A stretch of DNA of 64,000 nucleotides from Escherichia coli. Lineage in GTDB: Bacteria > Pseudomonadota > Gammaproteobacteria > Enterobacterales > Enterobacteriaceae. The stretch lies in NCBI RefSeq assembly GCF_050320075.1, contig NZ_CP190021.1; one strand, 5' to 3'. Numbering within the stretch: the stretch's first letter is position 1; every line of letters starts with the position of its first letter. The position numbers were made by a program, and so were the translations under genes. The notes beneath the pieces were generated by a model that searched no databases, was not told the origin of the DNA, and saw only the letters and a program-made list of their open reading frames with translations. Below, one piece after another: positions 17,483-64,000 of the stretch.

Positions 17483-17654
17483 GACAAAGTCTCCATTTCT
17501 GGAATTTAAATCAAACGGAAAGGTTAAAAATTTATTTGCAGGCGATAAGAGCTAACCAGAGGAATTAGCCGTGTGATAAAAGGATTGTTGCAGATACGAA
17601 AGTCGTTAGAATAGCTGCGGGCGCTTGAGGCTGTATGCCGAAAGCGTTTTGTGG

Positions 17655-17722
17655 ACGGTATACAGCAGAAAGCCCCTGGAGATTTTTTTATCAATCAACC
17701 AAGGGCTCTACTGTAATGCCTA
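17655..17722 (-). ncRNA. pndB: PndB (Sok-like) antisense RNA, approximate bounds
   Basis: Minus-strand TTGCCT-17-TACTAT/TATAAT promoter-like sequence at about 17760-17728. The predicted transcript covers the pndC start (17716) and contains the hairpin AGCCCTTGG...CCAGGGGCT followed by TTTCT. Confidence 0.5.
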
Positions 17723-17919
17723 GACAACATTATAGTAGCCCGATAACCGCCGTAAGGCAATGGAGGGGCTATGATGCCACAGCGAACGTTTTTAATGATG
17801 TTAATCGTCATCTGTGTGACGATTCTGTGTTTTGTCTGGATGGTGAGGGATTCGCTTTGCGGACTCCGGCTCCAGCAGGGAAACACAGTGCTTGTGGCAA
17901 CGTTAGCCTACGAAGTTAA
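17716..17919 (+). CDS. pndC: PndC (Mok-like overlapping reading frame)
   Basis: The frame overlaps pndA and ends 7 nt before the pndA stop. The ATG at 17716 lies inside the predicted antisense target. The track ORF starts earlier, at 17635. Confidence 0.55.
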   Translation: MPRQHYSSPITAVRQWRGYDATANVFNDVNRHLCDDSVFCLDGEGFALRTPAPAGKHSACGNVSLRS

Positions 17920-17926
17920 ACGTTAA
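17774..17926 (+). CDS. pndA: PndA, Hok-family type I toxin (50 aa)
   Basis: MPQRTFLMMLIVICVTILCFVWMVRDSLCGLRLQQGNTVLVATLAYEVKR is a classic Hok/PndA sequence. It is below the 60-aa track cutoff and was read by hand. Confidence 0.92.
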   Translation: MPQRTFLMMLIVICVTILCFVWMVRDSLCGLRLQQGNTVLVATLAYEVKR

Positions 17927-18249: not shown

Positions 18250-18402
18250 CGGATTTTCTCTCTGTATTTATGGGTAGTTATCGAACTGAATGTGCCAGTT
18301 TTTTCAGGAGACGGCAAAGTTGAGATGGTTGGTTCTGATTCAAAGCATGAGTTTCCCCGGTGTGACGGGCATGTCGGGCGGATTTTGAGAAACAACAGAT
18401 GT

Positions 18403-18433
18403 AAAAAAACCGACTGGTGAGGTCGGTTTTTTT
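18403..18433. terminator. perfect bidirectional intrinsic terminator
   Basis: AAAAAAACCGAC-tggtgag-GTCGGTTTTTTT. Confidence 0.85.
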
Positions 18434-18456
18434 ACTGTTCCGTTACAGAGTGGGTG

Positions 18457-18489
18457 GCTCTGGTCGGAAAAGAACTGTCTATAACTGAC
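18457..18489. repeat. 33-bp direct repeat, copy 1
   Basis: gctctggtcggaAaagaactgtctataactgac. Confidence 0.95.
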
Positions 18490-18644
18490 CTGTAGATAGT
18501 ACGTCTGGAATTATATTTCTGCAAGTACTGGATAAGTGTATACTCGGCATGTCAGCTCTGAGGCATGTTCTGTCCGGCATATTGTTCAGCGGGAAGAACA
18601 GGTTACAAGTCCTGGCCAAAACATCAGGTGGTGCTGGTTTTGGT

Positions 18645-18677
18645 GCTCTGGTCGGAGAAGAACTGTCTATAACTGAC
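18645..18677. repeat. 33-bp direct repeat, copy 2 (32/33 identical, 188 bp downstream of copy 1)
   Basis: gctctggtcggaGaagaactgtctataactgac. The 188-bp offset is not a multiple of 3, so this is not a protein-level duplication. Confidence 0.95.
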
Positions 18678-18749
18678 ACTATAGAAACCGTTGTGACAGG
18701 CAGTGTAAGAGCGAACAACGGGGTTCTTTCTCCAGTGATGGAGAAGCGG

Positions 18750-18845
18750 ATGATTAATCTGTTAATCATCGTTCTCAGGGCAGTAGTTGCCGTTGCAAAC
18801 GCGCTGATTGCTGTTCTGGAACTGATCCGGGAACTTATCGACTGA
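18750..18845 (+). CDS. 31-aa hydrophobic peptide, candidate DinQ-like type I toxin
   Basis: GGAG lies 6 nt upstream of the ATG. The peptide MINLLIIVLRAVVAVANALIAVLELIRELID is one predicted TM helix and resembles E. coli DinQ as I recall it. Confidence 0.55.
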   Translation: MINLLIIVLRAVVAVANALIAVLELIRELID

Positions 18846-18866
18846 TAAGCCTGGAAACGTAACTAA

Positions 18867-18892
18867 GGGCAGGGAGTTACCGCTTCCTGCCC
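18867..18892. terminator. hairpin between convergent genes
   Basis: GGGCAGG-gagttaccgctt-CCTGCCC followed by TTT. Confidence 0.55.
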
Positions 18893-18909
18893 TTTAACAA
18901 AAAGAGATC

Positions 18910-19086
18910 TCACGTTAAAAATTTGTACCCTTCTTTAACTTCCAGTGCCTGCTCCTTTGACTCAAACATCAGTCTTGTTTTCCCGGGAACGCCCCATGAA
19001 ATGTATTCAACATCTATCCACCATTTTCCATATTCTTTATATGGCCCGGATATTACTTTTTTGACAAAGGCATCTACCAGATTCAT
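18910..19086 (-). CDS. hypothetical small protein (58 aa)
   Basis: Internal ATG at 19086 preceded by AAAAGGAAAAAA. The protein reads MNLVDAFVKKVISGPYKEYGKWWIDVEYISWGVPGKTRLMFESKEQALEVKEGYKFLT. The longer 94-aa track ORF has no RBS. Confidence 0.45.
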   Translation of the reverse strand: MNLVDAFVKKVISGPYKEYGKWWIDVEYISWGVPGKTRLMFESKEQALEVKEGYKFLT

Positions 19087-19477: not shown

Positions 19478-19687
19478 ATGAGCATGCCTCCTGCGATAGC
19501 TAATACTTTCTTGTTTGAAATGATGAAGAGTAAATCAAAAGACGTTACACTTGCTGCGATCTATGCATTAGGTGAAGGCCGGTGTCAGGCGGAGAACATT
19601 ACTCGTGAATTACATAGATTGAGTCAAAGTGATGATATGGAAATAAAAATTGCTGCGATTAAAGCACTTGGTCGAATTTATCGGTAA
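19478..19687 (+). CDS. HEAT-repeat (PBS-lyase-like) fragment protein (69 aa)
   Basis: GAAGAGGA RBS. The repeats ...AAIYALGE... and ...AAIKALGRI... are typical of short HEAT repeats. It is likely a remnant of a longer gene. Confidence 0.4.
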   Translation: MSMPPAIANTFLFEMMKSKSKDVTLAAIYALGEGRCQAENITRELHRLSQSDDMEIKIAAIKALGRIYR

Positions 19688-62913: not shown

Positions 62914-63232
62914 CTAAAAACGCTATCACCGAGTTCCTACGCTCATTGGTGATAGCCCAGACGGGGGTAGGAATACCGGCGTCATCGGAAACCGGCCAGG
63001 CTAATGCCTGCCCCGCCTGAGCTACCATAGATGACGACAAGAAATACAAGTTCCTGTCTTTATGGTATGGCAAAAAACGACGCCAAATGAAGAAATTAAC
63101 TTCTGCGCCGACGATGACTACGCGGGTTCCTACGCCCGATCACAGTTTTGCCTGTGACCAGTAAAGGGTACTTAGTATAACGCACCGAGTCAACTAACAG
63201 CTTAAAAAACATACAAAAAAGCGTCAAAACTT

Positions 63233-63879: not shown

Positions 63880-63943
63880 CATAAAAGGAAAACCCCCACT
63901 ATCTTTCTTACGAACTTGGCGGAACGACGAAAGATAGTGGGGG
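63880..63943 (-). terminator. strong intrinsic terminator (candidate repZ/CIS terminator)
   Basis: 15-bp perfect stem CCCCCACTATCTTTC (63893-63907) / GAAAGATAGTGGGGG (63929-63943). In minus sense it is followed by TTTTCCTTTTAT. Confidence 0.75.
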
Positions 63944-64000
63944 CCTCACAGAATACGGGTAAAGTATAATGAAACCGTACCAGAGATTCAACCCTGTGCA

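Follow-up and report, generated by a model that had tools for sequence, protein, structure and literature searches.

In Escherichia coli K-12, the primary transcript of the toxin gene dinQ is translationally inert, as its elements 3 and 4 hide the Shine-Dalgarno (SD) sequence. Loss of the 5' 44 nt frees element 2 for pairing with element 3 and the SD opens; the small RNA (sRNA) AgrB, which binds across element 2 at the mapped site G88-A119, recloses the SD and triggers cleavage by RNase III (Kristiansen et al., PMC5066626). The dql family (dqlA and dqlB), present on Enterobacteriaceae chromosomes and natural plasmids, was defined in 2016 (PMC5066626), and two of its plasmid-borne members were characterized in 2025. 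On pOXA-48 (IncL), DqlB is toxic, AgrB rescues the cells and the pair kills on plasmid loss (PMC12365149), while on pOXA-484 (IncX3) the DqlB-AgrB locus is toxic and increases plasmid stability (PMC12317039). As for IncI1 plasmids, dqlB was found on 67.4% of them (PMC12365149) and has been named on plasmid pTF2 (PMC12211044). Here, we analyze a dqlB/agrB locus located around positions 18403-18892 of a 64,000-nt stretch of E. coli DNA (contig NZ_CP190021.1, assembly GCF_050320075.1; hereafter, the window), for which an earlier note, made from the sequence alone, had proposed a DinQ/AgrB-like type I toxin-antitoxin module.

We found that the proposal was right as to the kind of system, its family and its architecture, given the full-length matches to the family models NF041473 and RF02891 and the colinearity with the K-12 locus. 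With a probability of roughly 90%, we regard the locus as a DqlB/AgrB type I toxin-antitoxin system in the copy carried by IncI plasmids; within the DinQ/AgrB family, DqlB/AgrB forms the plasmid branch. The novelty on IncI1 plasmids that the note had implied is contradicted by the two IncI1 reports cited above. The finding is a correct rediscovery of a known system, since the dql family was named in 2016, the Prokaryotic Genome Annotation Pipeline (PGAP) annotates dqlB, and DqlB-AgrB was validated in 2025. Our comparisons draw on 14 related loci, including those of a pOXA-48-type plasmid, of IncK2/Z, IncHI2, IncF and IncX-sized plasmids, a plasmid-borne true dinQ and K-12.

Toxin gene, antitoxin gene and their described relatives

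The features of the locus and of its surroundings are collected in Table 1. The 31-codon open reading frame (ORF) described in the note is present together with its GGAG (18740-18743), placed 6 nt upstream of the ATG, and encodes MINLLIIVLRAVVAVANALIAVLELIRELID (31 aa and stop). This peptide covers positions 1-31 of 31 of the NCBIfam equivalog NF041473, "DinQ-like type I toxin DqlB," at 67.8 bits (cutoff 35), and its score with the DinQ model NF041472 (20.3 bits) is under the cutoff of 30. It shares 25 of 31 residues (81%) with the validated DqlB of pOXA-48, and RefSeq names an identical peptide dqlB. The DinQ sequence that the note had given for comparison proved to be exactly the product of the K-12 dinQ gene. 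In some plasmids, we observed two tandem dqlB genes with slightly different peptides (L003, 172-267 and 856-951; also match H43). In another one (L008, 869-934), an IS3-family insertion cuts dqlB to 21 codons and leaves the agrB side intact, i.e., it is a disarmed copy.

Table 1. Features of the dqlB/agrB locus and of other parts of the window (UTR, untranslated region; CDS, coding sequence).
Feature	Position	Strand	Basis
AgrB-type antitoxin sRNA gene, ~87 nt (5' 33-nt recognition domain, then small internal hairpin, terminator)	18403..18489	-	Rfam RF02891
AgrB intrinsic terminator	18401..18435	.	Inverted repeat I1, 14-nt arms 100% complementary, T run; minus-strand terminator-scan match
Repeat copy 1; its reverse complement is the AgrB 5' recognition end	18457..18489	-	Repeat family D1; covariation
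Predicted AgrB promoter: -35 TTGCAG (18524..18519), 17-nt spacer, -10 TACTAT (18501..18496)	18496..18524	-	Sequence reading; K-12 homology
Predicted dqlB -10 element TATACT	18539..18544	+	-10-like hexamer conserved ~200-215 nt upstream of ATG in 14/14 loci
Predicted dqlB mRNA, ~345 nt, 5' UTR ~199 nt	18551..18897	+	Colinear with K-12 dinQ transcript
Repeat copy 2, AgrB target in dqlB leader; contains element 2	18645..18677	+	Repeat, duplex, covariation; dinQ equivalent is the mapped AgrB site
Element 2, GGAGAAGAAC	18653-18662	+	Inside AgrB target
Element 3 (18721-18733) and element 4 with SD (18738-18744)	18721..18744	+	Minimum-free-energy fold; RNAalifold
dqlB CDS, 31-aa hydrophobic type I toxin	18750..18845	+	NF041473 match; identical to WP_000609148.1
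3' hairpin of dqlB mRNA, putative terminator with poor U tail	18865..18894	+	Inverted repeat I2, 12-nt arms, 92% complementary
pnd-type Hok/Sok locus	17619-17926		Rfam sok, 134 bits at 17619-17776
Small conserved ORF, hypothetical protein, 58 aa, excA side of locus	18910-19086	-	PGAP
Small conserved ORF, "HEAT repeat domain-containing protein," 69 aa, excA side	19478-19687	+	PGAP
C4 antisense RNA match (family of phage P1/P7 immunity RNA)	62945-63032	-	Rfam, 77.5 bits
repZ regulatory pseudoknot PK-repZ, cut by window end	63885-64000	+	144.9 bits

The minus strand at 18488..18401 matches the Rfam family RF02891 (AgrB) with 53.7 bits (gathering threshold 40) over model positions 1-84 of 84, and this is the only AgrB match in the whole window. 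Its predicted promoter occupies the position of the K-12 agrB promoter (TTGCAA-17-TAGTAT), which places the start of AgrB near 18489, the first base of the repeat. The claim that a minus-strand promoter and a textbook terminator frame an sRNA of ~87 nt stood with one caveat: both elements are present and the terminator was listed by the scan, but the promoter matches 7 of 12 consensus positions, was unlisted by the consensus scan and is not textbook. The terminator hairpin could act in both directions, as it is symmetrical and flanked by A7/T7. We determined that agrB is unannotated in every RefSeq/PGAP plasmid locus fetched (L003-L016), although dqlB is annotated there; among the loci fetched, agrA and agrB are given as non-coding RNA features in K-12 only, and the PLSDB tables contain no RNA genes. 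With agrB missing from the annotation, automated surveys of toxin-antitoxin systems register nothing but an orphan toxin.

A 521-bp query spanning the locus matched 1656 plasmids in PLSDB, 550 of them at a minimum of 99% identity and with the locus intact. Plasmid pFORC44_1 (IncI-gamma/K1) is 100% identical over the region; PGAP annotates its ORF as dqlB, flanked by a Hok/Gef gene and excA/traY, with trbABC upstream. The window locus belongs to the IncI transfer region, where its neighbors are pnd (Hok family) on one side and excA on the other.

The gene organization is colinear with that of K-12 agrB-dinQ (PMC3567139, PMC5066626). Both loci comprise the agrB terminator and body, the repeat (34 nt in K-12), divergent promoters and a leader with the second repeat copy, followed downstream by an SD hairpin, a short ORF and a 3' hairpin. 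The distance from the AgrB target to the start codon is 72 nt in the window and 73 nt in K-12 dinQ. Shared details include the leader motifs AGCUCUGAGG at the 5' end and the GUGACAGGCA stem-loop, the SD hairpin CUCCA...UGGAG, the alternative 2:3 pairing and the LELIR core of the peptide. Yet, the window peptide has 31 aa in place of 27 and its identity with DinQ (11/17) is confined to the C-terminal half. The window locus is plasmid-borne, lacks a LexA box at its promoter and possesses a single sRNA with no agrA paralogue (one AgrB match and two copies of the 33-mer in the window). The recognition sequences of the two loci are predicted to be orthogonal, with cross pairs of -17 to -19 kcal/mol. 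We also noted a plasmid-borne true dinQ of 27 aa, so named by PGAP (L013, 946-1029), with a repeat pair identical at 30 of 34 positions and no LexA box at its promoter.

Similar to the window locus, those of pOXA-48 and pOXA-484 encode a 31-aa DqlB and a single divergent AgrB, whose complementarity to the 5' UTR spans ~33-35 nt and ends 69-72 nt before the ATG, and they carry no LexA box at the promoter. The pOXA-48-type locus among our relatives (L012) also has the same 188-bp offset between the repeat copies. In contrast, the plasmid backbones and the neighboring genes differ from those of the window, and the recognition sequence of pOXA-48 is completely different. The window AgrB is predicted to pair with the pOXA-48 target at -20.9 kcal/mol and the reverse combination at -15.8, as compared with -53.0 and -42.4 kcal/mol for the cognate pairs. 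The ZorO/OrzO and TisB/IstR-1 systems resemble dqlB/agrB in that a divergent sRNA pairs with a long 5' UTR far upstream of the ribosome-binding site and that the toxin mRNA needs 5' processing for activity; however, they belong to a different family and their toxins are unrelated to DqlB. An OrzO identity of the window sRNA was rejected, as the OrzO-P model scored 33.8 bits, under its gathering threshold of 60, with a match mostly to the terminator, and for IstR there was no Rfam match at E <= 1.

Predicted pairing of AgrB with the dqlB leader

The repeat search recovered the 33-nt direct repeat as it had been described in the note: the copies are identical at 32 of 33 positions (97%; one A/G difference), are spaced 188 bp apart, and the downstream one ends 72 nt before the dqlB ATG. 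Beyond these two copies, no other site matching the 33-mer with nine or fewer mismatches was found in the 64-kb window. The expected pairing of the first 33 nt of the sRNA with the toxin leader was likewise borne out, as the core duplex runs through 33 bp uninterrupted at -60.9 kcal/mol, and the A/G difference appears in it as the anticipated single G-U pair. The RNAduplex interaction between the whole RNAs (-83 kcal/mol) was set aside in favor of this core duplex, being over-extended because intramolecular structure is ignored.

Each of the related loci has a repeat pair at the equivalent position, and 68-77 nt separate the leader copy from the ATG. Pairs of different loci diverge strongly in sequence, while the two copies within any one locus match. 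For a covariation test, the leader target and the sRNA 5' end of 13 loci were joined as a pseudo-hairpin (alignment A2); the pOXA-48 locus was left out of this pair count because alignment A1 gapped one side of its duplex. We found 92.3% of the intermolecular cells to be paired, versus 76.0% in shuffles (0 of 500 reached the observed value) and 38-46% in slid registers. Co-variation of the repeat pair in relatives, on which the earlier note had made its proposal depend, is strong, with compensatory changes at 25 of the 30 sRNA-leader base pairs. For core duplexes of 30 nt, the mean predicted energy is -46.6 kcal/mol in cognate and -25.2 kcal/mol in non-cognate combinations. This covariation is the pattern predicted by selection for pairing, and since complementarity is kept by compensatory change across diverged loci, ongoing selection is implied.

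Predicted control of dqlB and alternative explanations

The transcription start of dqlB was placed near 18551 by homology to the mapped +1 of dinQ (numbering of PMC5066626 on the K-12 sequence). In the minimum-free-energy fold of the predicted mRNA, an SD hairpin (18727-18733:18738-18744) sequesters the GGAG through pairing with 18730-18733, leaving it an unpaired probability of 0.07-0.11. Element 2 is complementary to element 3 over 18721-18731 (-12.3 kcal/mol), and on the 14-locus leader alignment RNAalifold chose this 2:3 pairing, with compensatory changes at 5 of 7 pairs, as well as a conserved stem-loop, also with covariation. The window leader combines the two marks of a dinQ-type 5' UTR, i.e., the SD hairpin formed by 3:4 and the exclusive 2:3 pairing. 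In the minimum-free-energy fold, the 5' GUUCUGUCC (18567-18575) is paired with a second GAAGAAC-containing motif of the leader (repeat family D3, 18593-18608 and 18657-18672, 75% identical). This pairing may compete with an element 1:2 lock such as that of dinQ.

For the window allele, we infer the mechanism by homology from dinQ/AgrB. A promoter near 18539-18544 would yield the dqlB mRNA of ~345 nt with its SD locked in a hairpin, and the primary transcript would therefore be poorly translated. By analogy with dinQ, 5' processing would free element 2, which would pair with element 3, open the SD and allow synthesis of the 31-aa membrane toxin. In turn, the divergent ~87-nt AgrB (18489 to 18403) would bind the leader at 18645-18677 by means of its 5' 33 nt, covering element 2, upon which the SD hairpin would re-form, and the duplex would present a substrate for RNase III. 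In the general type I addiction model, the antitoxin RNA would need a shorter life than the toxin mRNA. If AgrB is indeed the shorter-lived of the two, loss of the plasmid would lead to toxin synthesis and cell death (post-segregational killing), by which the plasmid would be stabilized. The homologues of pOXA-48 and pOXA-484 argue by analogy for such an addiction-module role.

Several observations weigh against this interpretation. The AgrB and dqlB promoters are both weak with respect to the consensus, and neither was listed by the promoter scan; the 3' hairpin of the dqlB mRNA has no U tract and was unlisted by the terminator scan. The element 1:2 locking duplex is moderate (-13.0 kcal/mol) and the fold uses a local partner (competitor 18590-18598). 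Truncation of the 5' end in silico opened the SD at one of seven cut positions (18620). As folding did not robustly reproduce the dinQ-type processing switch, the 5' lock and the processing step rest on homology. Gene conversion is, in principle, another possible source of covariation between direct-repeat copies. Finally, in the literature we found no experiment on the IncI allele itself.

Among the alternatives, the one that survives best, albeit unlikely, is that the locus behaves like chromosomal dinQ, i.e., as a stress toxin under SOS/LexA control, modulating membrane functions upon DNA damage, and not as a constitutive addiction module. The affiliation with the DinQ family favors it, and so does a CTG-N10-CAG motif, CTGGCCAAAACATCAG, inside the dqlB 5' UTR at 18612-18627, since a study of pTF2 put forward the counterpart site in the leader of the other IncI allele as a candidate LexA box, with a heterology index of 11.64 (PMC12211044). 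However, the center of this motif is G+C-rich, and the predicted start is ~60 nt upstream of it. At the dqlB promoter, CTG-N10-CAG is absent in the window and in all 13 plasmid-borne relatives, whereas in K-12 the LexA box TACTGTATGATTATCCAGTT overlies the -10 element of dinQ. The window counterpart of that box, TACTGGATAAGTGTATACTC, is devoid of the CAG half-site, and the best 20-mer there agrees with the consensus at 13 of 20 positions. Moreover, the two plasmid DqlB systems examined experimentally function in addiction or plasmid stability (PMC12365149, PMC12317039), and DqlB was undetected in the pTF2 proteome (PMC12211044), due to which SOS induction on that plasmid is not assessable. Given that its promoter, in contrast to that of dinQ, carries no LexA box, the dqlB allele is probably constitutive rather than SOS-induced.

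Because the dqlB LexA site reported for pTF2 differs in sequence, we searched for a second dqlB/agrB copy, and none was found in the 64-kb window by the Rfam scan, the 33-mer scan or a six-frame search for the LELIR motif. The pTF2 site was rejected as a second window locus, as it is part of the alternative allele, which occupies the same position.

It is less probable still that the locus is an inactive relic, with little or no transcription or with a mutated toxin. The weakness of both promoters would fit such a state, and disabled copies do exist elsewhere, e.g., the IS3-cut dqlB of L008 (21 aa). Against it, all parts are intact in the window, the peptide retains 81% identity to a validated toxin, the same allele recurs at 99% identity or higher in 550 plasmids, and complementarity is preserved by compensatory change across diverged loci.

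The notion that the real gene is the in-frame 98-aa ORF (18549-18845), with the 33-nt repeat an incidental duplication devoid of RNA function, has next to nothing left to recommend it: this frame is open in the window and in L003, and a longer "hypothetical protein" is annotated in some GenBank records (PLSDB matches H3 and H7), but only residues 68-98 match any family, in 10 of the 13 other loci that were compared an in-frame stop interrupts the extension 4-23 codons before the ATG, the upstream repeat copy falls within the full-length AgrB covariance-model match, the repeat co-varies as an RNA duplex, and the 188-bp offset is not a multiple of three, an argument against protein-level duplication that the note had raised and that is upheld here along with the RNA evidence. 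On these comparative grounds, the 98-aa ORF is not the gene and the short ORF is the conserved coding unit of the DqlB/AgrB system.

Recognition segment of IncI alleles and neighboring elements

Three IncI-type plasmids (L004, L008, and L009) have the pnd-to-excA backbone of the window and served for comparison with it. The flanks are 96-100% identical among these backbones, including the 3' two-thirds of agrB up to 18455. In L004 and L009, high identity resumes at the dqlB coding region (18751) and extends to the end of the aligned stretch; in L008, the downstream match stops near 18800, where IS3 interrupts dqlB. The ~300 bp in between (18456-18750) are only 48-86% identical between alleles and are sharply bounded. 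Within this variable part lie the AgrB recognition end, the two promoters and the complete dqlB leader, and the alternative cassette exchanges both halves of the recognition pair at once. The target sequence of the alternative cassette is that of the IncK2/Z plasmid L014. Cross pairs between the window and the alternative cassette are predicted at -15.9 and -22.8 kcal/mol, versus -53.0 and -45.8 kcal/mol for the cognate ones.

At the level of sequence, the pattern looks like the exchange of a specificity cassette by recombination. We tentatively suggest, while considering it doubtful, that the recognition part (18456-18750) is an exchangeable specificity cassette and that the resulting AgrB/dqlB pairs would neutralize neither each other nor chromosomal dinQ-agrB in cross combinations. 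We found no description of such cassette exchange, which was not surveyed systematically, and it may be the sole new aspect of the locus. It would be of importance for how plasmid cross-talk and competition are understood. If driven by selection, it would allow a plasmid to remain addictive in hosts, or alongside co-resident plasmids, already carrying another AgrB, and cassette diversification could feed competition between related plasmids.

As for the neighborhood, the pnd locus, ~0.8 kb from dqlB/agrB on the same plasmid, is also a type I addiction module. It differs in possessing a cis-overlapping antisense RNA and a 51-aa Hok/Gef peptide (17771-17926), which scores 68.7 bits, under the NCBIfam HokA cutoff of 89, and is assigned to Hok/Gef by PGAP. 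Family searches and the PGAP annotation agree with the note that this Hok-family locus is a distinct system, and the plasmid does carry two unrelated type I killer systems side by side (pnd and dqlB/agrB). Such an arrangement bears on how IncI1 resistance plasmids persist and on plasmid-curing strategies. At the far end of the window, the C4 antisense RNA match is located ~0.9 kb upstream of PK-repZ.

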